In this document: piece by piece, positions 4,791-63,947 of the stretch
Numbering within the stretch: the first letter of the stretch is position 1
How the letters are laid out: every line of letters starts with the position of its first letter
Assembly: GCA_050951405.1 (NCBI GenBank)
Contig: JBMNIZ010000015.1
Span: 163,536-227,535, forward strand
Direction of reading: 5' to 3'
From: Bacillota bacterium
GTDB lineage: Bacteria > Bacillota > DULZ01
Length of the DNA stretch: 64,000 nt
Notes under the pieces: model-generated
The model's input: the letters and a program-made list of their open reading frames with translations, nothing else
Databases searched by the model: none
Told to the model about the DNA's origin: nothing
Program-made: the position numbers and the translations under genes

Positions 4791-4836
4791 GGGCTTACCT
4801 CCTTGATTTATACTTGATGTAACAGCAGCAGAAAGA

Positions 4837-10473: not shown

Positions 10474-10490
10474 TTCTTTCCCTCCATCCA

Positions 10491-10500
10491 ATCTTTTGTG
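10491..10500. repeat. Left copy of the 10-bp direct repeat ATCTTTTGTG flanking the IS
   Basis: An identical 10-mer occurs at 11842..11851. Confidence 0.7.
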
Positions 10501-10503
10501 TTC

Positions 10504-10546
10504 TGTTAACTTAATAATAAAAATGAGACCTGAAACGCCTCTGGTA
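10504..10546. repeat. Left terminal inverted repeat (TGTTAACTTA...AATGAGACCTGAAACGCCTCTGGTA)
   Basis: Matches the reverse complement of 11791..11836. The first 10 nt and the last 24 nt are conserved with one mismatch. Confidence 0.75.
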
Positions 10547-10548
10547 TA

Positions 10549-21100: not shown

Positions 21101-21118
21101 GGATGTTGAACAGTCTCT

Positions 21119-23752: not shown

Positions 23753-23782
23753 CCTATCCCTTCGGCAATCCAGGTGTATTGA

Positions 23783-24951: not shown

Positions 24952-25159
24952 ACCTCCTACTTTAAGAACCGCAACTGCCTGGAAAATTTTCTTTCTATTT
25001 CCTGCACAGAGACAATTCCGGCAGTTCAGAGCATGTCCGGCCCGTCATGAATTACCTTCCTGCCGGGAATTTATTGTATTGTCCCCAACGGCAGGGAAAA
25101 TAATGTCACTTTACACTTCGCCGTCTCCGGAGGAATTCCTCCCCCTGGCCGGAAGAGAG

Positions 25160-33701: not shown

Positions 33702-34748
33702 GTGCTTTTTTTCCAAAGGGCGGCAACAAGGAAAAAGGTTTTGTGCCTGGCACTGTTTTGTATCTTGATCTTACCCATGATCGGTTGTTCATCAGAAACG
33801 GAAACAACAGGCGGAGATGACCAGAAGCAGACGATTGTTTTGGCAGACGCCAGCTGGGACAGCATCCAGGTCCATAACCGCATCGTGGGTTTCATCCTGG
33901 AAAATGGCTATGGCTACCCGGTGGACTATCTTTTCGGGGAAACATTACCTCTCCTCCAGGGACTGCGCAACGGCGATGTTCAGATCTACATGGAGATTTG
34001 GGCGGACAACATTTTAGAAGCCTGGGAAAAAGCGCTGAACGAAGGCAGCGTGCAAAACTTGGGGGTTAATTTTCCTGACGCACCTCAAGGTTGGTATGTG
34101 CCCACCTACCTCATCCAAGGGGATCCGGCCAGAGGATTAGAGCCTGTAGCTCCCGATTTAAAATCCGTCTTCGATCTGCCCCGCTATAAAGATCTTTTCC
34201 CAGATCAGGAAGTATCATCCAAAGGGCGTTTCCATAACAGCCCCCCGGGATGGGTCTGCACCGCCATCAACGAAGAAAAAATTGCCGCTTACGGTCTTGA
34301 TGAACATTTTAATATATTCAGCACCGGATCCGATACTGCTCTGGTAACATCCATGGTCAGCGCTTACGAAAAAGGCGAGCCCTGGCTCGGTTACTACTGG
34401 GAGCCCACCTGGGTCATGGGTAAACTGGATATGACCCGGCTGGAAGAACCCGCTTACAGCCAGGAGGTCTGGGATCAGGATAAAGCTTGTGCCTACCCCT
34501 TTGCCAGGGTATTTAAAGGCATTCACTCCGGTTTGCGGGACCAAGCCCCGGAAATTATCGATTTTCTGGAAAAATACGAAACAAGCCTGGACCAAAATAA
34601 TGATATGCTCTCTTATCTCATAGACGTGGACGGGGACACAGAAAAAGCCGCTGTCTACTTTTTGAAAAACTATCCTGAAGTCTGGCAGAGCTGGCTGCCG
34701 GAGGAGTTGGTGGCCAAAGTGGAAACCGCTTTAAATGAGGTGGACTAA
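33702..34748 (+). CDS. Glycine betaine/proline ABC transporter substrate-binding lipoprotein (OpuAC/ProX-like)
   Basis: GTG start with an AAGGGAGG RBS and a lipobox (LPMIGC). Confidence 0.8.
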   Translation: MLFFQRAATRKKVLCLALFCILILPMIGCSSETETTGGDDQKQTIVLADASWDSIQVHNRIVGFILENGYGYPVDYLFGETLPLLQGLRNGDVQIYMEIWADNILEAWEKALNEGSVQNLGVNFPDAPQGWYVPTYLIQGDPARGLEPVAPDLKSVFDLPRYKDLFPDQEVSSKGRFHNSPPGWVCTAINEEKIAAYGLDEHFNIFSTGSDTALVTSMVSAYEKGEPWLGYYWEPTWVMGKLDMTRLEEPAYSQEVWDQDKACAYPFARVFKGIHSGLRDQAPEIIDFLEKYETSLDQNNDMLSYLIDVDGDTEKAAVYFLKNYPEVWQSWLPEELVAKVETALNEVD

Positions 34749-35645
34749 ATGAAAAATCCCTTTGAAATATTAATTGAAGTGATTGATTTGTGGAAAGTGT
34801 TTGGTGCCCCTCCAAATACCGATGTGCGTGAAGCGGTGGAGCTGGCCAAACAAGAGAAGAAAAACGGCCTTGTCTGCGCCGTCCGCGCTGTTTCCTTTCA
34901 AGTGAGAAGAGGAGAAGTCTTTGTGATCATGGGCCTGTCCGGCAGCGGCAAGTCAACTCTGATTCGCTGCTTGGCCCGTTTGATCGAGCCCAGCTCCGGT
35001 CAAGTCCTGGTTAACGGCCGGGATGTGGTTTCCATGGGGAGCCAATCCTTGACGGAATTCCGCCGGAGGGAAATTGCCATGGTTTTTCAACATTATGGCC
35101 TGCTGCCTCACCGGACGGTTCTGGAAAACGTGCATTTCGGCTTAAAATTACGGGGCGAGAAGCGCGCTGCCAGAGAAGAAAAAGCAATAGAGGTCATCCA
35201 ACAAGTAGGTCTTTCCGGCTGGGAAAACCACTATCCCCACCAGCTTTCCGGCGGGATGCGCCAGCGAGTGGGCATTGCCAGGGCTCTGGTTCAGGATACG
35301 GAAATATTGCTGATGGACGAACCCTTTAGCGGCTTGGATCCATTGATCAGAAGGGAAATGCAAGACGAATTGCTCAGACTGCAGAAGGAGTTTCAAAAAA
35401 CCATTATTTTTGTCACCCATGACTTAAGCGAAGCCCTTCGCTTGGGAAACCGCATGGCAGTGATGAAAGAAGGCAGTTTTGTCCAGATCGGCACTCCCGG
35501 CGAAATAGTAGCCAATCCTGCCGACGATTATGTCAGACGTTTTGTCCAGGACGAAAGGAAACTGATGCATCTGCAAGAAGGAAAAGTGGAGCATCTGAAT
35601 CTGAAAAGAGATCATTTGCAATCTCTAAAAAATGTCATGCCTTGA
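34749..35645 (+). CDS. Glycine betaine/proline ABC transporter ATPase (OpuAA/ProV-like, no CBS pair)
   Basis: Walker A (GLSGSGKST) and signature (LSGGMRQRVGIARAL) motifs. Confidence 0.85.
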   Translation: MKNPFEILIEVIDLWKVFGAPPNTDVREAVELAKQEKKNGLVCAVRAVSFQVRRGEVFVIMGLSGSGKSTLIRCLARLIEPSSGQVLVNGRDVVSMGSQSLTEFRRREIAMVFQHYGLLPHRTVLENVHFGLKLRGEKRAAREEKAIEVIQQVGLSGWENHYPHQLSGGMRQRVGIARALVQDTEILLMDEPFSGLDPLIRREMQDELLRLQKEFQKTIIFVTHDLSEALRLGNRMAVMKEGSFVQIGTPGEIVANPADDYVRRFVQDERKLMHLQEGKVEHLNLKRDHLQSLKNVMP

Positions 35646-36511
35646 TTGGTGGTGAAAACATGTTTCCGGAAGCGCTGTCTTTTACCGTGGCTCCTTATAT
35701 TGACATCTTTGTAGACTGGTTAAAAGCTGCAGGCGGTCCTCTCTTTTCCGCCTTTTCCGATACGGTCTTGGCCTTTCTGCTGAAAATCGAAGCTTTTTTA
35801 CTGGTTACTCCCTGGTGGATCTGGATTGCCGTTGTGATCTTCATTAGTTGGTGGCAAACGCGCCGCTGGTGGAACTCACTAGGCTTGGGGCTGCTTTTAA
35901 TCACTATTGGAGTTTTGGGTCTATGGGACGTGACCATGAAAACCCTGGCCATAGTCATTGTTTCGGTGTTGATTTCCATCTTGCTGGGCATACCGCTGGG
36001 TATGACTATGGCCGAATCAAATCGCTTTAATGCGGCTGTCACCCCGCTCCTGGACGCTATGCAAACCATGCCCAGCTTTGTTTACCTGATCCCGGCCATG
36101 ATGTTGTTTCACCTGGGCAAAGTACCGGCCATAGTAGCTACAGTGATCTATGCTTTGCCTCCTGTGGTTCGCCTCACCAATCTGGGCATACGACAGGTAG
36201 CGTCCACAATTCAAGAAAGTGCCATAGCTTTTGGGGCGACCCGCTGGCAGCTAATCAAAGAAGTACGATTACCCTTAGCCGTCCCTTCCATCATGGCCGG
36301 CATTAACCAGACAACCATGATGGCCTTATCCATGGTGGTGATCTGCAGCATGATCGGCGCCGGAGGCTTGGGGCAAAAGGTACTGGTCGCCACCAATCAT
36401 ATTGCCGTTGGAGACGGTTTTGAAGCCGGCTGGGCAATTGTGGCTCTGGCCATTGTCATCGATCGCCTCACACAAGGGCTGATCAAAAAATGGGAAATAC
36501 CACAGGCTTAA
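35642..36511 (+). CDS. Glycine betaine/proline ABC transporter permease (OpuAB/ProW-like)
   Basis: BPD-transport inner-membrane component with translational overlap with the ATPase gene. Confidence 0.85.
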   Translation: MIGGENMFPEALSFTVAPYIDIFVDWLKAAGGPLFSAFSDTVLAFLLKIEAFLLVTPWWIWIAVVIFISWWQTRRWWNSLGLGLLLITIGVLGLWDVTMKTLAIVIVSVLISILLGIPLGMTMAESNRFNAAVTPLLDAMQTMPSFVYLIPAMMLFHLGKVPAIVATVIYALPPVVRLTNLGIRQVASTIQESAIAFGATRWQLIKEVRLPLAVPSIMAGINQTTMMALSMVVICSMIGAGGLGQKVLVATNHIAVGDGFEAGWAIVALAIVIDRLTQGLIKKWEIPQA

Positions 36512-38369: not shown

Positions 38370-39968
38370 CTATTTCTCCTCTTTTCTCTTTTTCGGCCTT
38401 CCGGCAATCCCCAAACGTGCGGCCGAATGATCCTTGCCTAGATAGAAATTGAGCCAAGAAGAGGTCTGGTATAAATCCCAATTACAAGGCGCAACAGTAT
38501 AAGCTTGCAGATTATCCTCCTCCTCATATTTCTTCAACCTGGCATAGGCCCGGACCCAGGCACATTTCCTTTCCTGCGGATAGACCTCGCACCAACCATG
38601 GTAACTGCCTTCGCAGGCACCGTTACGCTGGTTTTTTGGACATTGGGACATGGGACAAAGATAAGCCAGATCTAAAAGAGCGCAATCCCCACAGTCCTTG
38701 CAGTCATAAAGCAGTACTTTTGCCAAATGTTCAAACCAGTGGTAAGTTTTTTCCAGGGAAGATCCTTCCACCCTGCGAGCCAAACCCTGCATCAGGCTGA
38801 ACAGATTCTTATCCGGCTCAAAAGCCAGCTTATGGACAAACCTGGACAAGGGGTAGACATACTCCACCGGTGCCTCCAGAGGGCGTCCTTTCCTGTTCAT
38901 TGGCTTTTCCACGTTAAGTCCTGTTTTTTCATCTTTTTCAAAGTAATAAAAGCCGCCAGGTATGGGATAATCCAAATCTCTTACATAGTCCAACCAGTTT
39001 GGGGCCAGTTCTTCTCCTTTCTCGATGACATACTCCACCTGCTCATATTTTACATTAAAGCCGCCGATATGGACCCCCCGGTAACCCATTCCCTTCAGCA
39101 CCGCATACATTTTAGCTGCTCTCAATAGCCTTTCCCCAACTCCTTTATCAGGAGCCTGACGTTCTTCATCCAGTTCTGCCACCAGCTTATCGGTAACTAC
39201 ACAGCCCGGAATGCGATTGGCATTCATGGTTCGGGCCACACCAAAAGGCAAAATGTAAATATTACCGATCAAGGGCACATCCCAACCATGCAGCTGCATA
39301 TACAACAGCACTTCATGAAATTTCCTGGCGTCATAGCCCACCTGGGTCACAATAAATTTGGCACCGGCTTCCAGCTTTTTCTTCAGTTTGTAATATTGCA
39401 GAAGCTGTTCTGCTTCCGTAGCTTTGAAAGGAGAGACGGCAGCACCGGCAAAAAAATCGCTGGGCTGGTGTTTGACAGTTCCTTTCAGGTCCCGGTATTC
39501 AAGACCCTTATTCATATTTTCAATCAATTCCAAGGTATGAATGGGATCCAAATCGAAAACAGGCTTGGCCCTTCCTTTAAATCCGGTGACAGGATAATCA
39601 CCGGTCATCACCAGAAGATTCCTTACTCCCGCCCGGTCCAGAGCATAAAGTTGACTTTCCATCTGATTTCGGTTCTTGTCTTTACAGGTAAAATGGACCA
39701 GAGGTTCAATCCCTTTTTGAAAAATTTCCAAGCCCAGATAATCAGCCAACATGGCTGGATTCCCACCGGGATTATCAGTAATAGTCAAAGCGTGGATTCT
39801 TTTTCCCTTGGCCGCCTGCTGGGCAGCCGCCACCGCCGCTTCCTGGGGAGTTTCCCGGGCTCCTCTTCCCGGCACCAGTTCCCAAGTCACCGAAAAGCTA
39901 TTTTTGTCCAAAAGAGACTCCTTGAATTTGTTTCCCAAGAGAATTCCCCCTAACCAAGATAAAAACAA
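38370..39968 (-). CDS. metF: Methylenetetrahydrofolate reductase fused to a C-terminal Cys-rich MTHFR_C (MetV-like) domain
   Basis: The N-terminal ~300 aa carry the MTHFR fold. The C-terminal ~200 aa carry CKDCGDCALLDLAYLCPMSQCP...C. Confidence 0.7.
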   Translation of the reverse strand: MFLSWLGGILLGNKFKESLLDKNSFSVTWELVPGRGARETPQEAAVAAAQQAAKGKRIHALTITDNPGGNPAMLADYLGLEIFQKGIEPLVHFTCKDKNRNQMESQLYALDRAGVRNLLVMTGDYPVTGFKGRAKPVFDLDPIHTLELIENMNKGLEYRDLKGTVKHQPSDFFAGAAVSPFKATEAEQLLQYYKLKKKLEAGAKFIVTQVGYDARKFHEVLLYMQLHGWDVPLIGNIYILPFGVARTMNANRIPGCVVTDKLVAELDEERQAPDKGVGERLLRAAKMYAVLKGMGYRGVHIGGFNVKYEQVEYVIEKGEELAPNWLDYVRDLDYPIPGGFYYFEKDEKTGLNVEKPMNRKGRPLEAPVEYVYPLSRFVHKLAFEPDKNLFSLMQGLARRVEGSSLEKTYHWFEHLAKVLLYDCKDCGDCALLDLAYLCPMSQCPKNQRNGACEGSYHGWCEVYPQERKCAWVRAYARLKKYEEEDNLQAYTVAPCNWDLYQTSSWLNFYLGKDHSAARLGIAGRPKKRKEEK

Positions 39969-40836: not shown

Positions 40837-42901
40837 TCATTCAAGACCAGTCTCTGATCCTTTGGTCGGCTTGATCGGAAGGCGAAGATTGACCCGGTGA
40901 TCATAAAAAGTGCTTCCTCCCCCCAGATCAGTCAGGTCATCTCCCACCAGGCAGTTCACATTCCTACCACCAGGGGAAAGATATGCCCACCAGACCCCGG
41001 GAGCCGCCACCAACCCCCGAGGCAGATCATCGCTCTCTTCCAGATAAAAAAGACAAGATCCTCGATGATTGTAGGCTTCTACCATTTGCCCCGGGAAAAA
41101 ACCCAATTCCCGGCAATCAAGTGGATTCATCAGGAGCCGGGGCCTGCCCCCCTCCCTGCTCTGCAAACCCTCATCCTGGCCGAAGCTTGAATTAAGGGTA
41201 TAATGTGCCGGTACCGTTAATAAGTGAAAGGGGTAGATATCATCAGTCTCATCTTCTCTTTCCACATAATCAGGCAGCAAGGTCTGCCCACGGGAAAGGG
41301 CCCGAAGGGAAGCAATCTCTATTTTTCCGGAAGGAGTATCAAACCGGTAAGGATCCAGCTTCTCCACCCGCAGCCGCACCGGTTTTCCCTGGGCCAAATG
41401 CTCATAAGTGATCCCTTCCCGGAGAGGAGAGGGTTGGGCCAGAAGATGCTTAATGGCTTCTTCTTCCGTCCAGGAAAAAATCTCCTCTCGGAAATCAAAG
41501 GCCCTGGCCAAGGCGGAGAACACCTGCCAGTTGCTGCGGGCCTCTCCTAAAGGAGAAAGAACCCGCTTGGCCAACTGCAGATAATAATGACCATAGCTCT
41601 GGTAGAGATCATCCTGTTCCAGAGAACTGGTGGCCGGCAAAACCACATCCGCATAGAGGGCCGTATCAGTGAGAAACCTCTCATGGACCACGGTAAACAA
41701 ATCCTCCCGGGCCAAACCGGCCAACACTCTGTTTTGGTCGGGAAGAACCGCTGCCGGATTGCTGCTGTATACATACAGGCTTTTCACCGGAGGTTCTAAG
41801 GGAAAAGTGAGAATCCGCCCCAGCTGATTCATATTCAATTCCCTCACCGGCCGGGGACATAAATCGGGGCGAGTTAAAAGAGACAAATCGAAAGTTGTTC
41901 TTACGCTGAGAAGAGCCCCTCCCGCCTGTTTTGCCAAAAGCTCCCACTAAAGCCGGCAGACAAGAAATGGCCCGAACAGTAGCGGCTCCCCTTCTGGTCC
42001 GGGAAAGGCCAATTCCGATGCGGAGAAAAGGAGCCTTGGCCTGCCCGTAGGCCTTGGCCAGGCTGACCAGTTCCTCTGCCGGCAGGCCGGTAATTTCCTC
42101 CACCCGCCGGGGAGTGTATCGAGGCAAGACCTCTGCCCGCAACCGATCATATCCTTCCACGTATTGCCGGATAAATTCCTCATCCACCAGGCCCTCCTCC
42201 GCTAAAACATGCATGATGCCCAGAGCCAGGGCCCCATCGGTACCCGGTTTTACCAGGTAAGTCTGATCCACCAGCCGGGAAGTGCGGCTCCGATGGGTCT
42301 CAATCAGAACGGTCCTGGCTCCCTTTTTTCTCGCTTGCTGGACCAGCAGTAGGAAGTGCATATTGGTGGAAGCCGCATTGCTTCCCCACAAGACGATCAA
42401 GTCTGAATGGACAACAGTTTCCGGATCTGTGGCTCGGGTCTGGCCCATGGTCAGTTCCCAGCCGGCAACAGCCGCCGGGGAACAAATGGTCCTTTGGAGG
42501 CGAGAAGCTCCCAAACGGTGGAAAAAGGCCTGGCCGGCGTTACGTTGGATCAAGCCCATCACTCCGGCATAAGAAAAAGGCAGGATCGCCTCGCCCCCAA
42601 AGGAGGAAATAATCTCTTCCCAGCGACTGACAATGATTTCCAGGGCTTCTTCCCAGCTAATCTTTTCAAATTTGCCTGACCCTTTGGGGCCTGTGCGTCT
42701 CAAGGGGGTCAAAATACGCTGCGGAGAATGGACCAGCCGGGGATAGCTGGACATTTTGGCGCAAATCACGCCTCTGGTGAAAGGATGTTCCGGATCTCCG
42801 GAACATTTCACCACCTTCCCATCGTCTATATGAATTAAAAGGCCGCAGGCATCCGGACAGTCCAGATGGCAAACGGAAGGGAAGACAGAAACCATGATCA
42901 C
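40837..42901 (-). pseudogene. Molybdopterin oxidoreductase (N-terminal 4Fe-4S, MopB, C-terminal molybdopterin-binding barrel) with one frameshift near 41940
   Basis: ORF 41681..42901 (CHLDCPDACG...ALVGAFGKTGG) and ORF 40837..41937 are contiguous in different frames. The shift falls in a gggaggggc tract. Confidence 0.7.
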
Positions 42902-56911: not shown

Positions 56912-57265
56912 TGGGGGCGTACTGGTTTCGACGGGGGATGGTATTGGCGAAAGTAGCCAGGCGGGGTTCCATCAGCCCGTAATACGGTGGATCTAAATTA
57001 AACGCCAAAGAAAATTACGCTTTAGCTGCTTAGTTAGCGGCTAACCTTCTACCTACTGCTCCCGCGGTGTAGGATAGAGGGGCGACAGAGCGGGATACTC
57101 CGGATAGACCGATCGCTATATCCGGGGGAAAAAGAAGCGATCTAGCGGAAAACCTCTCCTGTCCTTGGGAGAAGTTTTTGGCGAAACCCTAAACAAGGAC
57201 TATCCTGGTAGAAGCTTTCGTGGGTACTCCTTCGGACGGGGGTTCGATTCCCCCCGCCTCCACCA
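56912..57265 (+). ncRNA. ssrA: tmRNA (ssrA); tag reading frame ...AKENYALAA-stop
   Basis: 5' end GGGGGCGUACUGGUUUCGACGGGGGAUGG. 3' tRNA-like end GGACGGGGGUUCGAUUCCCCCCGCCUCCACCA. Internal ORF GCC AAA GAA AAT TAC GCT TTA GCT GCT TAG. Confidence 0.9.
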
Positions 57266-57292: not shown

Positions 57293-57332
57293 AAAGCCCC
57301 TCAAGAGGATGGGGCTTTCAGCTTTTTCGAGC
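57293..57332 (+). terminator. Intrinsic terminator after ssrA (AGCCCC-loop-GGGGCT + TTTCAGCTTTTT)
   Basis: Hairpin plus a T-run. A second, weaker hairpin lies at 57340..57368. Confidence 0.55.
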
Positions 57333-57547
57333 ATCACTTTCAGTGGTGCTTTTTTATTTTTGTAATCTTTTGCACTCTACAGTTGAAAAAATCATCCTCG
57401 ACAGTCTATTTTTAAAAATAAAAATAATTTATAAGGCCGGCAAAGACCATTTATACATTTAATTGGATTTATTGTATGCCCTTATATATAATTTATAAAC
57501 GCTGAATAAAAAACAATAAATATATTTTTGGAGGGCGGTTCGTTCCT

Positions 57548-58180
57548 ATGAGTCTACTGGAGGCAATCAGCGATGCCATTCTCAGGCAAAATGAAGAAGA
57601 AACCGTTTCTTTGGTGCATAAGGCTTTGGAAGAGGGATATCCGCCCCTGGAAATCATGAATAATGCCTTAATCCCCGGCATCTATGCAGTCGGTGAAAGG
57701 TTTAGAGACGGGATCTACTTCATTCCGGAAATGATCTGCGGGGCTGCAGCCATGCAGAAGGGAATGGATGTTCTGAGGCCCTTGATCGCATCGGAGCCGG
57801 ATCACTTTGACGGCAAGGTGGTCATTGGAACAATTGCCGGAGATATGCATGACATCGGCAAGAATATCGTGGCCATCATGCTGAAATCCGCCGGATTTCA
57901 TGTTTTTGATCTGGGCTGTGACGTGCCGGCAAAAGCATTTGTTGATGCGGCGGAAAAAAACGAAGCTGATCTGGTGGGGATCTCCGCACTGCTCAGCTCC
58001 ACCATGCTTTCCATTCCGGATGTGATCGATGAACTCAGCAAACGGGGCCTGCGGGATCGCGTAAAAGTCATTGTCGGCGGTGCGGCTGTTACCCAAACAT
58101 TTGCAGATCGCATTGGCGCGGACGGTTATGCGGAAGATGCCATGAATGCTGTTCGGGTGGCTCAAGATTTAATTAAGTAA
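57548..58180 (+). CDS. Corrinoid (cobalamin)-binding protein of a methyltransferase system (DxHxxG motif GDMHDIGKNIV)
   Basis: B12-binding N-terminal helical cap plus a Rossmann domain, about 210 aa. Confidence 0.85.
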   Translation: MSLLEAISDAILRQNEEETVSLVHKALEEGYPPLEIMNNALIPGIYAVGERFRDGIYFIPEMICGAAAMQKGMDVLRPLIASEPDHFDGKVVIGTIAGDMHDIGKNIVAIMLKSAGFHVFDLGCDVPAKAFVDAAEKNEADLVGISALLSSTMLSIPDVIDELSKRGLRDRVKVIVGGAAVTQTFADRIGADGYAEDAMNAVRVAQDLIK

Positions 58181-58192
58181 GGATGAAAGGTC

Positions 58193-60166
58193 ATGATGGT
58201 AAAAAAAGTGATTTGCGGCCTTTGTGCCTGTAATTGTATTTTAAAAGCTCACTGTGACAAAGAAGGCCTTTTGCCAAACATCAAGGGAGATGAAAATAGT
58301 ATTACAGGGGGCTTTTCCTGCATTAAGGGCCGGTCCATAGCTAAAATCGCCAGGAGTAAAAACCGCCTGCAAACCCCCTTGCTCAAAAAGCCCAGTGGAG
58401 AATTTGTGCCGATTACCATTGATGAAGCATTGGACCGGCTTGCAGAAGAAATGCTCACCATTAAAAAGGACTTCGGCCCATCTGCTTTTGCTTTTCACAG
58501 CGGCCAAGCGGGAGTGCGCAGGCAGTTTTCCCGGTTGACAGCTTATACGGCCAAGCTTTTTGGTTCTGTCAATTATTCAGGTATCGGTGCTACCTGCAAT
58601 ATTTCCAAACGCTTGGCATATCACCTGACGCTGGGGGCTTTCCCAAAATGCAATTATAAAAAGGCAAAAACCATTGTTTTATGGGGTCATAATGCCCCCC
58701 ATACCCATCCTTACGATTGGCATGTCATCAACAGCAGGTGCAATCAGAAGGCCAAGCTGATTATTATTGATCCCCAAAAAACTCCTGCCTGCAGGTCGGG
58801 CGTGCTTCACTTGCCTTTAATCCCAGGGACGGATATTTACTTGGCTTGGGCAATGCTCAAAATTGCCGTGGACAACAAATGGCAGCAATCCGCCCTGGAA
58901 GATAAGCTAAAGGGGCTGCCGGAACTAATTGATGCTCTAAATGAATTTGACGCCGTTGAGCTCTGCCGTATTTGCGGCCTGGCCTATGAAAATGTCCATG
59001 AAGCGACAAGGCGGATCATGAAGGAAAAACCTGCAACCATAATGGTCGGAACTGCTGTAGAACTACAGCGGCACGGTTTTCAGGCAGCACGGGCCATTGC
59101 CCTTTTACAGGCCTTAGCAGGATTGGAAGCTCTGGCCTTTTGCCCCAAGCCATCATACAAGCAATTTCCCGTTCAAGCCCATGGGGAAGGAACAATGGTA
59201 GGGTCTTCCCAGTATCCCCTTTTCACCGAATTTGCCGGTTATGCCCAAAGCAACTTATTATTAAAAAGCATTGAAAATAACGATGTGAAAGGATTGTTGG
59301 TGGTTGGGGGCAATCCGCTGCTAACCTGGACGGATGCGGCAAGAAACAAAGAGGCCTTCTCGAGGCTTCAATTTTTGGCTGTGATGGATAATTTTCTGAC
59401 TGCCACCGCCAAAGAGGCGGATTTAATCATCCCGGCAGCCAGTCCCGGGGAAAAATATGAGCTGATTGAATGCATTTCCAGTGAAGGAGATGTGTACATA
59501 AACCTGTCTGAACCCATCCTGCCTCCTTTGGCCATCAATGAGGTGGAATTTTTTAAAGGCCTGGCGGAAAGATTGGGTTTTGGCCATGCCATGCCCTGGA
59601 ACAATTCCTGGGAATTTTTTAATTACCTGCTGGAGCCCTTGCAGCTGGATTGTGAGAAACTGCTGGAAACTCCAAATGGAAGTTTTTATGCTTCCGGTAT
59701 GAAGTGGGAAGATTTAAAAAACGGCTGGGACGGAATAAATATTGTAGCGCCTACACTAAAAGCATACGGGCATCAAGTACCGCCTGTTCCTCCCAAATAC
59801 AGTGTCCCCGCCGAAAATAAAGTGATTTTAACCACTTGTGACAAGCCGAAGGAATTGGTGCACACCCGCTATCGCTCGGTGGACAGCTTAGCAAAAAACC
59901 ACAAGCCGGTAATCAAACTGGCTTCACGAACGGCTCGGAAACATGGCATCAAAACAGGAGACATGGTAGAGGTCAGCCGCAACAATTATTGTCTTATTGC
60001 CGAGGCAAGGGTTTCTGATGATGTGATTGGAGCGGATGCAGTACTCGGCCACGGCTGGGAGGAGCTTAATGTCAATGCTTTCACCAGCCTGGCCGAATTG
60101 GATGCGGTTACCGGCTTTCCCCATGCGGTCGGAATAGAGGTCACCATCAAAAAATACAGGGGGTAA
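58193..60166 (+). CDS. Cytoplasmic molybdopterin (bis-MGD) oxidoreductase with an N-terminal 4Fe-4S cluster; substrate unknown
   Basis: CGLCACNC...GGFSCIKG in the FdhF-like N-terminal position, a MopB core, a C-terminal molybdopterin-binding barrel, and no Tat signal. Confidence 0.8.
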   Translation: MMVKKVICGLCACNCILKAHCDKEGLLPNIKGDENSITGGFSCIKGRSIAKIARSKNRLQTPLLKKPSGEFVPITIDEALDRLAEEMLTIKKDFGPSAFAFHSGQAGVRRQFSRLTAYTAKLFGSVNYSGIGATCNISKRLAYHLTLGAFPKCNYKKAKTIVLWGHNAPHTHPYDWHVINSRCNQKAKLIIIDPQKTPACRSGVLHLPLIPGTDIYLAWAMLKIAVDNKWQQSALEDKLKGLPELIDALNEFDAVELCRICGLAYENVHEATRRIMKEKPATIMVGTAVELQRHGFQAARAIALLQALAGLEALAFCPKPSYKQFPVQAHGEGTMVGSSQYPLFTEFAGYAQSNLLLKSIENNDVKGLLVVGGNPLLTWTDAARNKEAFSRLQFLAVMDNFLTATAKEADLIIPAASPGEKYELIECISSEGDVYINLSEPILPPLAINEVEFFKGLAERLGFGHAMPWNNSWEFFNYLLEPLQLDCEKLLETPNGSFYASGMKWEDLKNGWDGINIVAPTLKAYGHQVPPVPPKYSVPAENKVILTTCDKPKELVHTRYRSVDSLAKNHKPVIKLASRTARKHGIKTGDMVEVSRNNYCLIAEARVSDDVIGADAVLGHGWEELNVNAFTSLAELDAVTGFPHAVGIEVTIKKYRG

Positions 60167-60170
60167 CAAT

Positions 60171-61208
60171 TTGAAAGAGCTTACGAAAAGGGAGAAGATC
60201 ATTAATACCTTGGAGGGAAAGAAAACCGGCTATATTCCCGTTATTCCTTCTGCCACTACCTTTGCCCTGGCACGCTCTCCACATTCCCCCGAAGATTGCA
60301 AAAAGGATTCCCGCAAGTTTGCGGACGCCATGGTCTCCGCCCGCAAGGAGTTCAATTATGACGGACTGTGGGCAGGCTTATTTCAAGGGGTTACATCCTT
60401 TCTGGGAGGCGGCTTAATCGATAAGCACGGGAAAAAATCCGTGAGCGGAAACGGGACGGTGCGTCAGCCGGAAGATATGAAAAAACTGCGCCCTTTCCAT
60501 GTTGATTTATGCGAAGCTCTGCACCATATTATGGAAAATATTGCCTTGTTAAAAAAACTGGAACCGGCTGAGCCGGTATTGGTCATTGTCGACAATCCTT
60601 CCATGGTGGCTGCAGCTTTGATGGATGAAGAAAATTATTACTTTAACCTGATCAAAAATCCGGCCTTTATTCGGGATCTTACAGAGCTGGTTTTTGACCC
60701 CTTGTTGCTCTGTGTGAAAAAAATAATTGAGGCCGGAGCGGATATTATTTGGCTGCCTTTACCCTCGATTGGCGGCACCTGCATCTCCCGTCAACATTAT
60801 GAGACATTCTGCATGCCATATAACAAGAGATTTAACGAGGCTATTATCGCCCAAGGGGCACATCTGATTGTCCATACCTGCGGCAACTGGAATGACCGCT
60901 TTGATCTAGTAACCACGGAAGGTGCCCATTGTTTGCATGTCTCGCAAGCAGATTTGGGGGAATTGAAAAAAAATTACGGAAAGAAAGTGGCCTTAATGGG
61001 ACAGGTGCCTTCCATTTCCGTGATGATGCTGGGCGATGCTGATCTGGTTCTAAAGACAGGAATTCAGGATTGCTTGCAAGGGGCAGAAAATGGCGGCTTC
61101 ATCCTCAGCGCGGATTGCGGTTTGCCCGGAAAGACTCCTGAGGAAAACATTCGGGCCCTGGTGAGGGCCGCCAGAGAGGCTGAACAGCTGCTGTCCGGGA
61201 AATGCTGA
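60171..61208 (+). CDS. Uroporphyrinogen-decarboxylase-family methyltransferase (MtaA/MtbA/MtsA-like) with a Zn motif H-x-C...C
   Basis: URO-D fold. The putative Zn ligands are HTCGN and ADCGLPG, about 75 aa apart. Confidence 0.8.
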   Translation: MKELTKREKIINTLEGKKTGYIPVIPSATTFALARSPHSPEDCKKDSRKFADAMVSARKEFNYDGLWAGLFQGVTSFLGGGLIDKHGKKSVSGNGTVRQPEDMKKLRPFHVDLCEALHHIMENIALLKKLEPAEPVLVIVDNPSMVAAALMDEENYYFNLIKNPAFIRDLTELVFDPLLLCVKKIIEAGADIIWLPLPSIGGTCISRQHYETFCMPYNKRFNEAIIAQGAHLIVHTCGNWNDRFDLVTTEGAHCLHVSQADLGELKKNYGKKVALMGQVPSISVMMLGDADLVLKTGIQDCLQGAENGGFILSADCGLPGKTPEENIRALVRAAREAEQLLSGKC

Positions 61209-61240
61209 TTTGTATAGTTTGAATCAATTGCTGAAATGAG

Positions 61241-62071
61241 GTGATCAAAATGACGAGAAGCATCAAACTGTCTTTACGCAATATTTCCCATTTCTATAAG
61301 GACACCACCGGGCAAGAGATGGAGGCCATTAGAAACATCAGCTTGGACGTTTATGACGAAGAATTTATCGCCATCGTCGGTCCCAGCGGCTGTGGAAAAA
61401 GCACTTTATTAAATATCATGTGCGGTATGCTGCGGCCCACATCCGGCACGGTGATGTTGGACGACAGGGATCTAAAAACTGCTAAAAGCAAGATCGGCTA
61501 CATTTCCCAAATGGATACTTTGTTTCCTTGGCGAAAAATAATCGATAACGTTGCTTTGGGGCTGGAATTGGAGGGAGTTCCCCAGAAGGAGCGCTTACGC
61601 ATCGCCCGGGAGCTCATGGAAACCAGCGGATTGAGAGGTTTTGAAGATAAGTATCCCTTTGAGCTCTCCGGCGGCATGAGGAAACGGGCAGTGATTATCC
61701 GGGCTTTGGCCCAGGATCCGGACATTATTTTTATGGACGAACCTTTCGGGCCATTGGATGTATTTACGAAAGCCTTGCTGCAGCAAGAAATACTGCGCAT
61801 CTGGTCTGAGCGCAAAAATACCATTATTTACATTACCCATGATATAGCAGAAGCAATCTTGTTGGCAGATCGGATCATTTTACTCAGTTACCGGCCGGCA
61901 ATAATAAAAAAGGAATACCAAGTTAATATAGCCAGACCCCGTATTATAGAAGAGTGCAAATACAATCCATATTTTTCAGAGTTGGAAAGAGAAATCTGGG
62001 AGGCCATTAAGGAAGATGTTAAAATTGCTCAGGAGGAAGAACTGCGCCAATATGATCAAAAAATTGTCTAA
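61241..62071 (+). CDS. ABC transporter ATP-binding protein (NitT/TauT; SsuB/TauB-like)
   Basis: Walker A (GPSGCGKST) and signature (LSGGMRKRAVIIRAL) motifs. Confidence 0.85.
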   Translation: MIKMTRSIKLSLRNISHFYKDTTGQEMEAIRNISLDVYDEEFIAIVGPSGCGKSTLLNIMCGMLRPTSGTVMLDDRDLKTAKSKIGYISQMDTLFPWRKIIDNVALGLELEGVPQKERLRIARELMETSGLRGFEDKYPFELSGGMRKRAVIIRALAQDPDIIFMDEPFGPLDVFTKALLQQEILRIWSERKNTIIYITHDIAEAILLADRIILLSYRPAIIKKEYQVNIARPRIIEECKYNPYFSELEREIWEAIKEDVKIAQEEELRQYDQKIV

Positions 62072-62831
62072 AATCCGGGTTCTCCCTCAGATCTGCTTTG
62101 TGCTTTTCTTAGTCTTCTTTTTTGGCGTCTGGGAGCTGTTAGCCAAGATGGGCTTGATCAACACATTTTTGTTCAGCACTCCTTCGGCCATCTGGGCGGA
62201 TATTGTGGAGCTTTTTCTGACTGGTGAGATTTGGATTCATACCTTTGCAACTCTTTACGCGGCATTTCTTGGCGTTTTAAGCGGCACAGTCTTAGGGGTT
62301 TTGGTGGCTTTCATTTTTGGCAACGTGAAATTGCTGGCCGATATCTTTGATCCGCTTTTCGTGGGAATAAACGGCTTGCCGAAGCTGGCCCTCGGGCCCC
62401 TTTTTATCGTGTGGTTTGGCATTGGGATGATGGCCAAGATTTTTATGGCCACCATCATGGTCTTTTTTCTGGTTTTCTTTAATGCTTATGCGGGATTTCG
62501 CAGCGTAGACGTAAACCTGGTTAACACTTTAAAGTTGATGGGCGCCAGCCGGATCCAGATTATTACCAAACTGATGCTGCCTTCCTGTGTGCCTTGGATC
62601 ATGGCCAGTTTACGAGCGGGAGTTGGTGCAGCGGTTTTAGGAGCAATTGTGGGTGAATATTTAGGAGCGGTCAAAGGCTTGGGTTGGATGGTAATGACTG
62701 CCGGCGGGGTCTATAACATTACCCGGGTGCTTTCCTGTATTTTTATTTTGATGGTGATGATGGCGTTGCTGGATTTTATCGTTAAACGAATTGAAAGAGC
62801 CGTTCTCAAATGGCGGCCTTCAATCGATTAA
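62052..62831 (+). CDS. ABC transporter permease (SsuC/TauC-like)
   Basis: BPD-transport permease with 6 TM helices. Its start overlaps the ATPase gene 3' end. Confidence 0.8.
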   Translation: MIKKLSKIRVLPQICFVLFLVFFFGVWELLAKMGLINTFLFSTPSAIWADIVELFLTGEIWIHTFATLYAAFLGVLSGTVLGVLVAFIFGNVKLLADIFDPLFVGINGLPKLALGPLFIVWFGIGMMAKIFMATIMVFFLVFFNAYAGFRSVDVNLVNTLKLMGASRIQIITKLMLPSCVPWIMASLRAGVGAAVLGAIVGEYLGAVKGLGWMVMTAGGVYNITRVLSCIFILMVMMALLDFIVKRIERAVLKWRPSID

Positions 62832-62860
62832 ATAAGCAGCATTAAAAGGAGGTAATAAGC

Positions 62861-63913
62861 TTGAGAAAAATTCTCGTTTTATTCATGGCGGCAATTCTCA
62901 TCTTTTCGCTAGCCGGGTGCAGCGGTACGGATTCCACCTCAAATGAAACCCCTTCCACGGAAAATGAAACTGTTTCTGACCACAAGGAAAAGGAACTGAA
63001 AAAAATCACTGTCAGTGAACCGGTAAGAAGCGAACTTTGGGGGCCTGCCTATTTGGCCAAAGCCCTGGGCTATTTTGAAGAAGAGGGACTTGATGTTGAG
63101 TTTGTCACAGTGCAAGGGGACATGCCCACCGCCCCGGTTTTATCCGGCGATGCCCAATTTGGCCTCTACGGGCCGGAAATGATCCTCAGCTTTAATGAAA
63201 AAGGGCAGGGTACGAAATTAATTGCCACGGTCAGTGACCGTTACCCCTATTCCTTTGTCACCGCCAAGGATATTACCGAGATAAAACAGCTTAAAGGCCG
63301 TGTTGTCTGTGCCGGTGACAGCGGTTCGTCACCCCGGGCTTTTGTACGAGGTATTGTAGCATCAGCAGGACTCGATCCGGATAAGGACGTTACTTATGTG
63401 AATATACCGGGAGCGGCAAGTATTGCGGCCTTGGAAAAAAACGAAATACAGGGTACTTATGTGACGCCCACTGCCCGGGCCATAGCATTGGAAGCCGGTT
63501 TCAACCTTTTGATTGACATCTATGATCCGGCTGTCCACAGCGAACTCATCGGCTCAGACAGCTACGAAATGTACATTATTTTCAGCACAGATAAATACAT
63601 CAAGGAAAATCCCGAGACGGTACAGGCCTTTGTCAACGCGGTATACAAGGCCATCCTCTGGGCCGACAGCCATAGTGCGGAAGAGGCGGTGGAAGCACTC
63701 ACACCCCTTTTCGCCAATTCCCAAACACTTCCCACGGCAGTTGCGGAAATTAAAGAAAACGACCTTTGGTCTTCTGACGGCCTGTTTTCCGACAGTGGAT
63801 ACGAGGCCATCAACCGCGTAGCTTTAAGTTCGGGCTTAATTAAAGAACCTGTAAAAAGAGAAGCGGCTATTGACGATTCATTCATGAAGAAAGCCCATGA
63901 AAATATAAATTAA
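62861..63913 (+). CDS. ABC substrate-binding lipoprotein (NMT1/SsuA/TauA-like)
   Basis: TTG start with an AAAGGAGG RBS and a lipobox (LAGCSG). Confidence 0.8.
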   Translation: MRKILVLFMAAILIFSLAGCSGTDSTSNETPSTENETVSDHKEKELKKITVSEPVRSELWGPAYLAKALGYFEEEGLDVEFVTVQGDMPTAPVLSGDAQFGLYGPEMILSFNEKGQGTKLIATVSDRYPYSFVTAKDITEIKQLKGRVVCAGDSGSSPRAFVRGIVASAGLDPDKDVTYVNIPGAASIAALEKNEIQGTYVTPTARAIALEAGFNLLIDIYDPAVHSELIGSDSYEMYIIFSTDKYIKENPETVQAFVNAVYKAILWADSHSAEEAVEALTPLFANSQTLPTAVAEIKENDLWSSDGLFSDSGYEAINRVALSSGLIKEPVKREAAIDDSFMKKAHENIN

Positions 63914-63920
63914 TGTTTTG

Positions 63921-63947
63921 CCCCCCAAAAGGGGGTTTTCTTTTTAA
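63921..63947 (+). terminator. Intrinsic terminator (CCCCC-AAAA-GGGGG + TTTTCTTTTT)
   Basis: Read directly from the sequence after the SBP gene. Confidence 0.55.

Follow-up and report, generated by a model that had tools for sequence, protein, structure and literature searches.

A corrinoid methyl-transfer operon with an ABC importer and a rare MopB enzyme probably demethylates an imported sulfur or selenium compound

Introduction

What does an operon do that places a gene for a MopB (bis-MGD Mo/W) enzyme between the genes for a corrinoid protein and a zinc methyltransferase, and that adds an ABC importer to this set? Such an operon lies near the end of the window (the whole 64,000-nt stretch of DNA analyzed here) of an uncultured, selenium-using Clostridia bacterium, which encodes a GrdB/F-type selenoprotein with a Sec stop and an SsnA that scores above its cut-off. 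A previous sequence-only reading took the window to indicate an acetogen-like C1 metabolism, but what it displays is a selenoprotein metabolism of the Stickland type (Grd, TrxB, and SsnA) and no demonstrable acetogenesis. An importer, a corrinoid protein, an S/Se-type zinc methyltransferase, and a MopB enzyme were not found together in the literature that we searched. As we argue below, the operon probably serves to remove methyl groups from a sulfur or selenium compound taken up by the cell.

Results

Six genes form a single apparent operon downstream of ssrA

The six genes run co-directionally on the forward strand from 57548 to 63913 and form a single apparent operon, for which an ORF check gave the order corrinoid protein, MopB enzyme, URO-D methyltransferase, ABC ATPase, permease, and solute-binding protein. 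The first four genes are separated by gaps of 12, 4, and 32 nt, and the start of the corrinoid gene lies 282 nt 3′ of the end of the tmRNA gene (ssrA; 56913 to 57265, forward strand; found by ARAGORN and by Rfam RF00023 at 202.6 bits), which is upstream context outside the operon. The sequence-only reading was accurate at this level: All six ORFs had been given correct coordinates and strand, the same gaps, the overlap in the ABC genes, and a distance of about 280 bp from the tmRNA had been noted, and its domain calls for all cassette proteins were upheld by Pfam and NCBIfam. An intrinsic terminator (57329 to 57351, forward strand; a 10-bp stem and then a T-run) sets the cassette apart from ssrA. 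It is followed by an AT-rich leader with a candidate operon promoter (57383 to 57425, forward strand), consisting of two overlapping sigma-70-like sites that each match 9 of 12 consensus positions, as judged by consensus matching only. No riboswitch was found in this leader by an Rfam E-value search, and a strong intrinsic terminator (63920 to 63936, forward strand; GCCCCCC...GGGGGT and then a T-run) lies just past the last gene.

The region had also been described as visibly more AT-rich than its surroundings and hence as a horizontally acquired island at the ssrA hotspot. The cassette has a GC content of 0.475, versus 0.504 (SD 0.023) in upstream windows of the same size, 7% of which were equally low, and its GC3 of 0.50 to 0.57 is within the range of housekeeping genes. 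The hallmarks of an island were absent as well: There is no integrase, and direct repeats of the 3′ end of ssrA do not exceed 11 nt. The argument for an AT-rich ssrA island is weak.

The corrinoid protein is paired with a candidate substrate methyltransferase

The first gene (57548 to 58180, forward strand) encodes an MtbC/MtgC/MttC-like corrinoid (B12-binding) protein of 210 aa, with B12-binding_2 (Pfam PF02607) and B12-binding (PF02310) domains and the DxHxxG motif present as GDMHDIGKN. It scored 211 bits against TIGR02370 (cut-off 215), and its histidine motif aligned with that of its best PDB match, 1y80 from Moorella (7e-55). The third gene (60171 to 61208, forward strand) encodes a URO-D-family (MtaA/CmuA-like) zinc methyltransferase of 345 aa (Pfam PF01208, 147 bits). 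Its scores of 110 bits against TIGR01463 and 128 bits against PRK06252 are both under the cut-offs, and its NCBIfam scores to MtaA and MtbA are far under. Its zinc ligands His235-x-Cys237 and Cys316 align with those of MtaA (4ay7) and are retained by 28 members of the subfamily, with identities as low as 23%. Within the UroD superfamily, His-Cys-Cys is the mark of S/Se-methyltransferases, the cysteines being replaced in O-demethylases, and one UroD-superfamily homologue, an Mlp, transfers a methyl group from methylcobalamin to selenide in vitro (Kountz & Balskus 2023, PMC10418091). Given this zinc site and the corrinoid and Hcy/pterin pairing of its relatives, one of which (locus L097) has as neighbors a corrinoid protein and an Hcy/pterin protein that resembles the N-half of MetH, the URO-D protein is likely the substrate:corrinoid methyltransferase, and the MopB enzyme, which had been noted to occupy the place of an MT1, is no substitute for one.

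The same pairing of a corrinoid protein with a URO-D zinc methyltransferase occurs in MtsA/MtsB and MtpC/MtpA of Methanosarcina, and MtpCAP also has a transporter gene, as here. A pair of this type can carry out thioether demethylation and thiol remethylation without a separate MT1 or MT2. The present pair differs in having a MopB gene between its members and a bacterial host without evident coenzyme M, and the earlier idea of methyl-CoM as the substrate received no specific support. The corrinoid protein is also of the same family as those of MtgBCA, the O-demethylases, and MtaABC, whose genes likewise cluster with transporters. Unlike in those systems, 72 kb of sequence contained neither an MT1 of the MttB, MtaB, or O-demethylase type nor an MT2, pterin-binding or other, nor an activase (RamA/RACo). 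A selD gene was not found within these 72 kb either. An MT1 gene just past the window, which the sequence-only reading had allowed for, did not turn up: The 8 kb beyond it contained no MT1, MT2, or activase. The locally missing parts are MT2 and the reductive activase.

The importer belongs to the NitT/TauT family

The last three genes encode a NitT/TauT-family ABC importer, with an ATPase (61241 to 62071, forward strand; Pfam ABC_tran; in the public gene call it begins at 61250), a permease (62016 to 62831, forward strand; Pfam BPD_transp_1) whose gene overlaps that of the ATPase by 56 nt, and a solute-binding lipoprotein from the NMT1/SsuA superfamily (62861 to 63913, forward strand; Pfam NMT1, 102 bits; lipobox LAGC). 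The best NCBIfam matches of the ATPase were TauB-like (216 bits) and SaoA (206 bits), both under cut-off, while the permease scored about 100 to 106 bits against SaoP, SsuC, and TauC, all under cut-off, and the binding protein 65 bits against SsuA_fam (cut-off 163.5). The label "sulfonate-type" thus holds at the level of the NitT/TauT family and not beyond it, as all three components fall below the NCBIfam equivalog cut-offs. Nor was the binding protein borne out as SsuA/TauA-type: Its nearest solved relatives are an uncharacterized Bordetella protein (3qsl, 1e-13) and ThiY (1e-6), with SsuA at 3e-5, and no characterized equivalog was matched in NCBIfam or the PDB.

With SaoA and SaoP as best or near-best NCBIfam models of ATPase and permease, the locus resembles the selenocysteine-assisted organometallic (SAO) system (Haft & Gwadz, bioRxiv 10.1101/2022.07.06.499078), as it does in its importer family, in its Stickland-type selenium-using host, and in the double-cubane reductases that accompany relatives' cassettes. 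It departs from SAO in the scores under cut-off, in the absence of Sec codons and of SaoL, SaoB, SaoC, SaoD, SaoE, and SaoT, and in a binding protein without a CC or CU motif.

The MopB enzyme belongs to no characterized clade

The second gene (58193 to 60166, forward strand) encodes a cytoplasmic MopB enzyme of 657 aa (Pfam Molybdopterin and Molydop_binding) with an N-terminal [4Fe-4S] motif, C-x2-C-x3-C...C (C8, C11, C15, and C43), and Cys135 as its predicted metal ligand. These FeS cysteines and the Cys ligand were universal among the MopB sequences compared, and a conservation analysis marked A12, C13, N136, C153, and C549 as clade-specific. Neither a signal peptide nor a TAT signal was found in the protein, and the cassette encodes no membrane anchor or FeS subunit for it. 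An AF2 model (pLDDT 86.6) predicted the complete MopB fold with confidence. Its top Foldseek match was acetylene hydratase (2e7z; TM 0.86), and ArrA and PsrA were also near (TM 0.86 to 0.87). The clade is represented by one 50%-identity cluster among 1.84 billion, and scores drop from 846 to 375 bits between it and everything else. All NCBIfam matches were far under cut-off, including the S/N-oxide, selenate, and arsenate reductase models. By these sequence comparisons, the enzyme belongs to a very rare, isolated clade and to no characterized one, and the earlier concern that it might fall into a known clade of unrelated function was not borne out.

Could it still be a conventional formate dehydrogenase, or an assimilatory nitrate reductase, that happens to lie beside an unrelated methyltransferase pair and transporter? 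The top NCBIfam scores were indeed for Fdh-alpha (190 bits) and NasC (158 bits), the architecture is FdhH/NarB-like (monomeric, one [4Fe-4S], Cys ligand), and nitrate transporters share the NitT/TauT ABC family. However, these scores are three- to seven-fold under the cut-offs of 666 and 1100 bits, and the steep score drop sets the clade apart. We rejected formate dehydrogenase, as Asn takes the place of the catalytic, ligand-adjacent His of FdhH and the stretch surrounding FdhH Arg333 has been deleted. The 12- and 4-nt gaps, together with a gene order found in three to four lineages, moreover argue for functional coupling, and we consider such a chance neighbor highly improbable.

The best characterized sequence relative is acetylene hydratase of Pelobacter acetylenicus (2e7z; 3e-30, 19% identity), likewise monomeric and cytoplasmic with an N-terminal [4Fe-4S] and a Cys ligand. 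The catalytic residues of that enzyme are missing, however, with Ala in place of the catalytic Asp13 and with Cys13 and Asn136 in place of the pocket residues Ile14 and Ile142, and the genomic context is different. The kinship nevertheless bears on another scheme, in which a methoxylated (guaiacol-type) aromatic acid is imported, as it is by some NitT/TauT-family binding proteins, the URO-D and corrinoid proteins O-demethylate it, and the MopB enzyme acts on the product as a soluble catechol dehydroxylase or transhydroxylase. The catechol dehydroxylases, including the small Cldh-type enzymes, are the characterized group nearest acetylene hydratase (PMC7028382), and URO-D-family O-demethylase MT1 enzymes exist, namely, OdmB and VdmB (PMC10418091). 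Yet the URO-D subfamily here retains the His-Cys-Cys signature whose cysteines O-demethylases have lost, the genes around relatives belong with Se and S (double-cubane reductase, SelD, and DsrE/DsrC) and not with aromatic catabolism, and the membrane anchor, FeS subunit, and TAT signal of Dadh-type enzymes are absent, making this scheme decidedly unlikely.

The fold similarity to ArrA and PsrA would also accord with a reversed methyl flow, where the importer brings in an inorganic oxyanion (selenate, selenite, arsenate, or tellurite), the MopB enzyme reduces it, and the URO-D and corrinoid proteins methylate the resulting selenide, sulfide, or As(III) for volatilization or biosynthesis. NitT/TauT importers do carry inorganic oxyanions such as nitrate. 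The homologous Mlp performs just such a transfer to selenide (PMC10418091). On the other hand, there is no donor-side enzyme (pterin-binding or other MT1) to load the corrinoid, the selenate and arsenate reductase models scored far under cut-off, and actively importing a toxic oxyanion merely to volatilize it is hard to rationalize. We therefore judge this reversal very unlikely.

A constant methyl-transfer core is accompanied by variable redox proteins

The order corrinoid protein, MopB, URO-D, and ABC recurs in other uncultured Clostridia, with MopB identities of 55 to 62%, in three different genomic neighborhoods. The four-gene module proposed earlier thus does recur, but it is not obligatory: One locus (L101) lacks MopB and carries two double-cubane reductases besides the genes for the corrinoid protein, URO-D, and the ABC system, while others (L004 to L008) carry MopB plus one double-cubane reductase. 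Across the cassettes, the accessory redox proteins differ (MopB, double-cubane reductase, both, or Pyr_redox_2), whereas the corrinoid protein and URO-D are constant. What is conserved is a core of corrinoid protein, URO-D, and importer, and MopB is a variable accessory that double-cubane reductases replace or join in sister cassettes. Such reductases occur almost only in SelD-containing genomes (Haft & Gwadz). At 31 to 33% identity, MopB relatives adjoin double-cubane reductases and SelD (L011) or DsrE/DsrC/MOSC (L015), and other distant relatives adjoin corrinoid proteins with RACo, or MttB- or MtmB-family methyltransferase genes.

This variability raises the idea that the MopB enzyme, like the sister double-cubane reductases, serves the corrinoid protein as an electron-input or partner module and does not act on the substrate, either replacing RamA/RACo by making Co(I) or acting directly on methyl-Co(III). 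RamA/RACo are absent from the cassette and its 72-kb surroundings, the redox accessory varies around a constant core, and relatives of MopB turn up repeatedly next to corrinoid proteins and to MT1 enzymes of three different families, which points to a substrate-independent role. Known corrinoid activation, however, requires ATP coupling, and an ATPase for activation is absent. In addition, MopB occurs alongside a RACo activase at L013/L014 and L071, and with MttB but no nearby corrinoid protein at L062 and L096, while the metal-ligand Cys and the complete bis-MGD fold are retained, a costly cofactor for mere electron transfer. On balance, we find such a role unlikely.

Discussion

Our preferred reading, held tentatively, is that the operon serves to take up a soft-heteroatom compound, most likely a methylated Se or S species, and to transfer methyl groups from (or to) it in a corrinoid-dependent manner. 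Starting from the observed genes and their operon structure, the motifs for cofactor binding, the co-conservation, and the Se/S-linked neighbors of relatives, we infer which substrate is used, which way the methyl group moves, and what the MopB enzyme catalyzes, as follows. A polar or anionic substrate would enter through the NitT/TauT-type ABC system with its lipoprotein binding protein. Drawing electrons from a soluble low-potential donor via its single [4Fe-4S] cluster, the Mo/W-bisMGD enzyme would reduce an oxidized form (selenoxide, seleninate, sulfoxide, or a related oxy-species) to the level of a selenoether/selenol or thioether/thiol. The URO-D Zn(His-Cys-Cys) enzyme would then pass the methyl group to corrinoid Co(I), freeing selenol/selenide or thiol, and the methyl group might exit via an MT2 encoded elsewhere or via the same URO-D enzyme on a thiol acceptor (compare MtsA). 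Reduction by the Mo enzyme followed by corrinoid loading through an MtsA-like zinc methyltransferase, with selenium as an option, was among the earlier proposals and is the one favored by the comparative data.

Reduction of Se, S, and As oxy-species is a well-established activity of Mo-bisMGD enzymes (YnfE/F, DmsA, BisC, and ArrA), in support of this demethylation route. Several observations pull the other way: The MopB enzyme has a Cys ligand, not Ser, and is in no known S/N-oxide or selenate reductase family, its nearest characterized relative is non-redox, the binding protein matches no characterized equivalog, and selD, MT2, and the activase are missing locally. Many seleninates and selenoxides are reduced by thiols non-enzymatically, so that a dedicated reductase is less obviously needed. 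The MttB and MtmB neighbors of distant MopB relatives, which act on N-methyl substrates, are a better fit to a general role linked to methyl transfer than to one specific for chalcogens.

A genetic precedent for corrinoid-dependent demethylation of dimethylselenide is provided by Methanococcus SdmABC (PMC11097638). The locus shares with SdmABC and the mlp type 1 MGCs (Kountz & Balskus 2023) a His-Cys-Cys UroD methyltransferase nearer to CoM methyltransferases than to HemE, its adjacency to a monomeric corrinoid protein gene, a cluster without an H4folate methyltransferase, a selenium-using host (Grd selenoproteins), and double-cubane accessory genes that recur in relatives. It differs in its single URO-D gene, where mlp type 1 MGCs need Mlp2 and Mlp3, in the lack of a Ram/RACE activase, and in the added NitT/TauT-type ABC importer and MopB enzyme; in the text of PMC10418091, "molybd" is absent and "ABC" appears only in the reference list. 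On our reading, the locus is a variant of the mlp/Sdm-type clusters, in which an ABC importer and a rare MopB enzyme join the corrinoid protein and the zinc methyltransferase, a combination unreported in the literature searched.

A single transcription unit that behaves as a portable module

Six genes, all on the + strand and all running in one direction, occupy positions 57548 to 63913, as the sequence-only reading had described. They encode, in order, a 210-aa corrinoid protein (Pfam B12-binding_2 and B12-binding; TIGR02370, 211 bits), a 657-aa molybdopterin enzyme (Molybdopterin and Molydop_binding domains; hereafter MopB), a 345-aa URO-D-family protein, and, as the last three genes, the ATPase, permease, and lipoprotein (NMT1-type) solute-binding components of an ABC transporter. 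Between genes the gaps measure 12, 4, and 32 nt, the ATPase and permease genes overlap, and 282 nt separate the cassette from the tmRNA gene (56913-57265), again in agreement with that description. The ssrA terminator (57329-57351), promoter-like sites (57383-57425), and a strong terminator closing the cassette (63920-63936) together delimit one transcription unit. No riboswitch was found in the leader, where an Rfam E-value search of leader and locus returned the tmRNA alone.

The earlier proposal that these genes form an AT-rich island inserted at ssrA fared less well. The cassette is slightly AT-rich, with a GC content of 0.475 vs 0.504 (sd 0.023) in same-size upstream windows, which places it at the 7th percentile (7% of windows are equally low), but the GC3 of its six genes (0.50-0.57) is host-like, the values overlapping with those of host genes such as smpB, grd, and ssnA. 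Among the called genes of the public 297-kb contig spanning the window (L001), no integrase lies near ssrA, and when the ssrA 3' end was searched for as a direct repeat marking the far border, the longest match to the ssrA tail was 11 nt, at ~10 kb distance. Beyond the cassette, that contig continues on the opposite strand with genes for a thioesterase, RNase R, an HD protein, an H+-PPase, secG, and enolase. The neighborhood differs between three lineages: ssrA/rnr in the window's organism, genes for a double-cubane reductase and for NusG_II/thioredoxin in the P0004 lineage, and rpsT in the P0002 lineage. Accordingly, the cassette behaves as a portable module, and an ssrA-integrating element is not demonstrable.

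Further features of the window and its contig were noted. A GC-rich stretch at 20000-25000 (0.55-0.62 vs ~0.50), which includes an indolepyruvate:ferredoxin oxidoreductase alpha-like gene (22304-23752), deviates in composition more than the cassette does, and an IS6-family transposase gene (10549-11637, +; 158 bits vs a cut-off of 125) adjoins a BMP-type ABC transporter operon (5717-10491). On L001 (16232-21457), the genes for RNase R and the H+-pyrophosphatase are fragmented into several open reading frames (ORFs), whereas a second contig from this organism (L002, 11842-17051) carries each in one piece, which suggests frameshift errors in the assembly of the 297-kb contig.

The URO-D protein is the probable MT1-like enzyme

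The corrinoid protein combines a B12-binding_2 cap with a Rossmann B12-binding domain and the DxHxxG motif, and its GDMHDIGKN segment aligns with that of the Moorella protein 1y80. The URO-D protein carries the Zn ligands His-x-Cys and Cys in alignment with MtaA (4ay7); across 28 sequences of its subfamily, with identities down to 23%, H235 and C237 are kept in at least 90% and C316 is invariant. Membership in the MtaA or MtbA families was rejected on score (MtaA_Meth 87.7 vs a cut-off of 400; MtbA 83.3 vs 600; TIGR01463 110 vs 235). Clusters that pair UroD-family and corrinoid proteins are widespread, and a His-Cys-Cys site has been argued to mark S- or Se-methyltransferases, the cysteines being replaced in O-demethylases (Kountz & Balskus, PMC10418091); the cassette protein has the His-Cys-Cys site of the mlp-type URO-D proteins. 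Methylation of selenide has been demonstrated for one mlp-type UroD protein (Kountz & Balskus, PMC10418091), and demethylation of dimethylselenide has a genetic precedent in SdmABC of Methanococcus (PMC11097638).

The cassette nonetheless differs from the type 1 mlp clusters, which contain at least two URO-D paralogues (Mlp2 and Mlp3) and encode a Ram/RACE protein: with its single URO-D gene and no activase, it falls outside that type. Pterin-binding or MetH-N type MT2 proteins (methyl-corrinoid:acceptor methyltransferases) gave no tblastn match in the 64-kb window and the 8 kb downstream, and neither did MttB, MtmB, RACo, double-cubane reductase, or SelD queries; RACo, the reductive activase of corrinoid proteins, had no match in the window or on L001. 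The advice to look past 64 kb for an MT1 (substrate:corrinoid methyltransferase) or an activase was thus followed, with neither found in those 8 kb and MT2 absent as well. We therefore discarded a corrinoid system that has an H4folate- or thiol-type MT2 and an activase within the cluster. A role of MopB directed at the corrinoid itself, as its activator or as a partner of the methyl-Co state, appears fairly unlikely.

The URO-D protein is the sole MT1 candidate beside the corrinoid protein, and its context makes an MT1 role likelier than an MT2 role. Hence, where MopB had been placed in the MT1 position, the cassette is better read as having URO-D as its MT1-like enzyme, with MT2 and activase absent locally. 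MtsA is a single URO-D enzyme able to catalyze both half-reactions, and by this precedent a self-sufficient methyl exchange between two proteins is possible.

With ~30 clusters at 42% identity or above, the URO-D subfamily exceeds the MopB clade in breadth, and its contexts separate the constant from the variable parts of the cassette. Two loci whose URO-D proteins share 54% identity with the cassette protein (L101/L102) encode a corrinoid protein, URO-D, ABC ATPase, permease, NMT1 binding protein, and two HGD-D proteins, and no MopB. At 61% identity (L097/L098), URO-D and its corrinoid protein are accompanied by an MFS transporter and a 584-aa protein resembling the N-terminal half of MetH, with Hcy S-methyltransferase and methyl-H4folate:corrinoid methyltransferase domains. 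At 47% identity (L099), URO-D is paired with a flavoprotein, with an MttB/corrinoid protein/pterin-binding/OpuAC system alongside. These contexts indicate a conserved core of corrinoid protein, URO-D, and importer with a variable redox partner. The L097 locus (1-11333), where the MetH N-half is split, has two MFS transporters and a Na/sulfate-type symporter, and a glycyl-radical enzyme with its activase is encoded upstream of the URO-D group.

MopB belongs to an isolated clade of Cys-ligated enzymes

The N-terminal cluster motif of MopB, C8-x2-C11-x3-C15...C43, begins at residue 8 and so leaves no room for an export signal. No named NCBIfam family was reached. Formate dehydrogenase was rejected on score (Fdh-alpha, 190 bits vs a cut-off of 666) and on its active site, where Cys-Asn replaces the Sec-His of the FdhH type and the Arg333 segment, after residue 310, is deleted; the assimilatory nitrate reductases NasC/NarB were rejected as well (NasC, 158 vs 1100). 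That an FDH- or Nas-like enzyme came to lie next to methyltransferase genes by chance is very improbable. PhsA scored 127 bits vs a cut-off of 694. The S-/N-oxide and selenate reductases also fell short (dmsA_ynfE 111 vs 778; bisC_fam 81 vs 1018; YnfE 75 vs 1675), and the DMSOR type, in which a Ser ligand is expected, is at odds with the Cys of MopB. A second MopB gene in the window (40837-42901, −), only 24% identical to the cassette enzyme and adjoining a MetF-like gene (38370-39968), consists of two ORFs that overlap in different reading frames, a DmsA/YnfE-like N-half (41681-42901; 172 bits) and a C-half (40837-41937); either it is a pseudogene with a frameshift or the assembly is in error there.

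By sequence, the closest solved relative of MopB is acetylene hydratase (3e-30), with FdhH second. An AF2 model (pLDDT 86.6, pTM 0.89) matched acetylene hydratase, PsrA, ArrA, FdhH, and Nap in the PDB about equally (TM 0.82-0.87), which indicates a complete but generic MopB fold that assigns no function. Cys135 aligns with Sec140 of FdhH and Cys141 of acetylene hydratase and is universal in the related loci (107/107), with a Sec (TGA) codon at this metal-ligand position in 0/107. MopB shares with acetylene hydratase this Cys metal ligand and the cluster ligands C8/C11/C15/C43; it differs at Asp13, which is Ala12 in MopB, and at the pocket residues Ile14 and Ile142, which are Cys13 and Asn136, and acetylene hydratase was rejected on these grounds. 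In that enzyme (2e7z), Asp13, next to a cluster Cys, is catalytic, and Ile14 and Ile142 form a hydrophobic pocket. Two further cysteines, C153 and C549, are invariant in the close clade of the cassette MopB, C549 replacing the Gly of the usual TTGxR motif.

The catechol dehydroxylases are the characterized group nearest acetylene hydratase (PMC7028382), so that a combination of O-demethylation with catechol dehydroxylation has to be weighed. This shared proximity is the only known tie of the Dadh/Cldh clade to MopB, and the His-Cys-Cys site of URO-D speaks against O-demethylation; we regard the combination as quite unlikely.

The clade is also rare. Only four clusters among 5.8 billion clustered proteins reach 55% identity to MopB, and when 1.84 billion representatives (50% identity) were scanned exhaustively with HMMER, one clade representative emerged (846 bits), with the next-best match at 375 bits and 33% identity; 271 representatives lay at E ≤ 1e-30 in the same scan. 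A metagenome scan for this clade brought in three more contigs, two of which come from "fermentation metagenome" assemblies, and in GTDB species representatives the best among the matches listed had 31% identity. The named carriers are all uncultured Clostridia or Bacillota metagenome-assembled genomes (MAGs).

Neighboring genes suggest a link to selenium or sulfur

The importer had been called sulfonate-type, and this holds at the level of the superfamily (NMT1, BPD_transp_1, ABC_tran); the SsuABC/TauABC equivalog scores were out of reach (SsuA_fam 65 vs a cut-off of 163.5; SsuC 105 vs 347; TauB 216 vs 357). Near-best matches of the ATPase and the permease were SaoA and SaoP, both below threshold, and assignment to the SAO system was rejected (SaoA 206 vs 360; SaoP 106 vs 295; SaoX 27 vs 300). 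The cassette has no in-frame TGA codons and none of the other sao genes, the MerB-like SaoL included.

Double-cubane proteins have been reported almost solely from genomes with SelD, and as companions of the SAO transporter system (Haft & Gwadz, bioRxiv 10.1101/2022.07.06.499078). The HGD-D neighbors of cassettes and relatives are all bona fide double-cubane-cluster reductases (NF040772, 403-526 bits vs a cut-off of 350). In the P0004 lineage, one of these reductase genes lies immediately upstream of the cassette; others flank MopBs related at 31-33% identity (L010, L011/12), and a further match was obtained ~7 kb from MopB in Pelotomaculum (L017). The locus L011 (534-6346) encodes, in order, a radical-SAM/SPASM protein, MopB (31% identity), a double-cubane reductase, and SelD (371 bits vs a cut-off of 125); in L015 (1034-5211), an ABC ATPase, DsrE, and MopB (32% identity) are followed by DsrC and MOSC on the opposite strand. 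These two gene orders embed the nearest out-clade MopBs in contexts of selenium and sulfur trafficking.

The host itself uses selenium, as the window contains a GrdB/GrdF-type selenoprotein B, GrdG/E, thioredoxin reductase, and SsnA. The selenoprotein B ORF, in a glycine/sarcosine/betaine-reductase cluster (311-4868, −), stops at the expected Sec UGA (profile position 345/431) and is followed by the GrdG/E-like and thioredoxin reductase genes; a betaine/choline ABC importer is encoded at 33702-36511. SsnA, a "putative selenium metabolism protein" (12349-13674, −; 645 bits vs a cut-off of 455), and an ArgE/DapE/YgeY-like hydrolase, present as a fragment (24274-24951), are markers of the neighborhood of selenium-dependent molybdenum hydroxylases.

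MopB relatives recur beside methyltransferase genes

In distant branches of the MopB family (23-28% identity), same-strand neighbors from methyltransferase systems recur. In candidate division WWE3 (L013/14), MopB is followed by a corrinoid protein and RACo; in Caldilinea (L071, 4295-12124), the order is RACo, corrinoid protein, MttB-family protein, a 140-aa ORF, and MopB; and in L107 (5050-10169; also L109, L111, and L112), an MtmB-family protein, a corrinoid protein, and a 151-aa ORF precede MopB. The small ORFs preceding MopB in L107 and L071 showed no kinship. An actinobacterial MAG (L044) has MopB followed by two URO-D genes. In other loci no corrinoid protein lies nearby: L062 (8501-17085; MttB, MopB, Opp-type ABC), L096 (6911-12136; MttB, MttB, MopB), and L025 and L093, where MopB lies ~100 nt from an MttB gene. 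Across Chloroflexi and Spirochaetes, these four loci place distant MopB relatives ~100 nt downstream of MttB-family genes. The uncharacterized WWE3 cluster (L013, 946-11048) extends over MopB, the B12-binding protein, RACo, two small ORFs, a radical SAM protein (HMPTM-type Zn ribbon), a PaaK-like AMP ligase, and an NfnB-like flavoprotein.

Adjacency to methyltransferase genes was seen in about a dozen of the ~95 MopB lineages sampled, a raw tally. The pattern strengthens a functional link between MopB and methyltransferases, and it weakens a purely chalcogen-specific role for the MopB family as a whole. No description of it was found in the literature searched, and searches for MopB in corrinoid methyltransferase clusters, for MttB with molybdenum, and for double-cubane with molybdopterin proteins returned nothing relevant.

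A proposed mechanism and its implications

The mechanism that we consider likeliest builds on the genes, motifs, operon structure, co-conservation, and context that were observed. A polar methyl-Se or methyl-S compound would be imported, and its oxidized form would be reduced at the Mo/W centre of MopB with electrons that may pass from a soluble low-potential donor via the single [4Fe-4S] cluster. URO-D would then assist, through Zn, the transfer of the methyl group to the Co(I)-corrinoid, from which it might be disposed of by an MT2 encoded in trans or to a thiol. Which compound serves as substrate, which way the methyl group moves, and what MopB catalyzes are the inferred parts of this scheme, and the mechanism as a whole is tentative, a possibility somewhat short of probable. 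A flow in the other direction, in which a reduced oxyanion becomes methylated, is improbable.

UroD-type corrinoid methyltransferase clusters tied to S/Se metabolism are already known; the cassette extends them by an ABC importer of its own and by a Mo/W enzyme, a member of an isolated clade, set among the methyltransferase genes. The parts are ordinary, and their combination is conserved, testable, and without a description in the literature searched. MopBs recur beside URO-D, MttB- or MtmB-family proteins, corrinoid proteins, and RACo in distant phyla, and they could form an unrecognized family of cytoplasmic, Cys-ligated Mo/W-bisMGD enzymes that are dedicated partners of corrinoid/TIM-barrel methyltransferase systems, the cassette member coupling Mo/W redox directly to methyl-Se/methyl-S demethylation or to the corrinoid cycle. 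We consider this unlikely; if true, it would be a new Mo/W-cobalamin metallo-cofactor partnership in anaerobic methyl-group and selenium cycling.

Corrinoid methyltransferase systems set which methylated compounds anaerobes can use and influence their output of methane, acetate, and volatile S/Se compounds. With a Mo/W enzyme as part of the operon, the substrates would widen to oxidized methyl-chalcogen (or methyl-metalloid) species, and such an enzyme would offer a handle on selenium scavenging by selenium-dependent fermenters. The recurrence of URO-D, MttB, and MtmB methyltransferases, double-cubane reductases, and SelD as neighbors of the MopB family also gives a testable common context to several orphan families: MopBs that resemble acetylene hydratase, double-cubane reductases, and non-canonical URO-D, MttB, and MtmB proteins.
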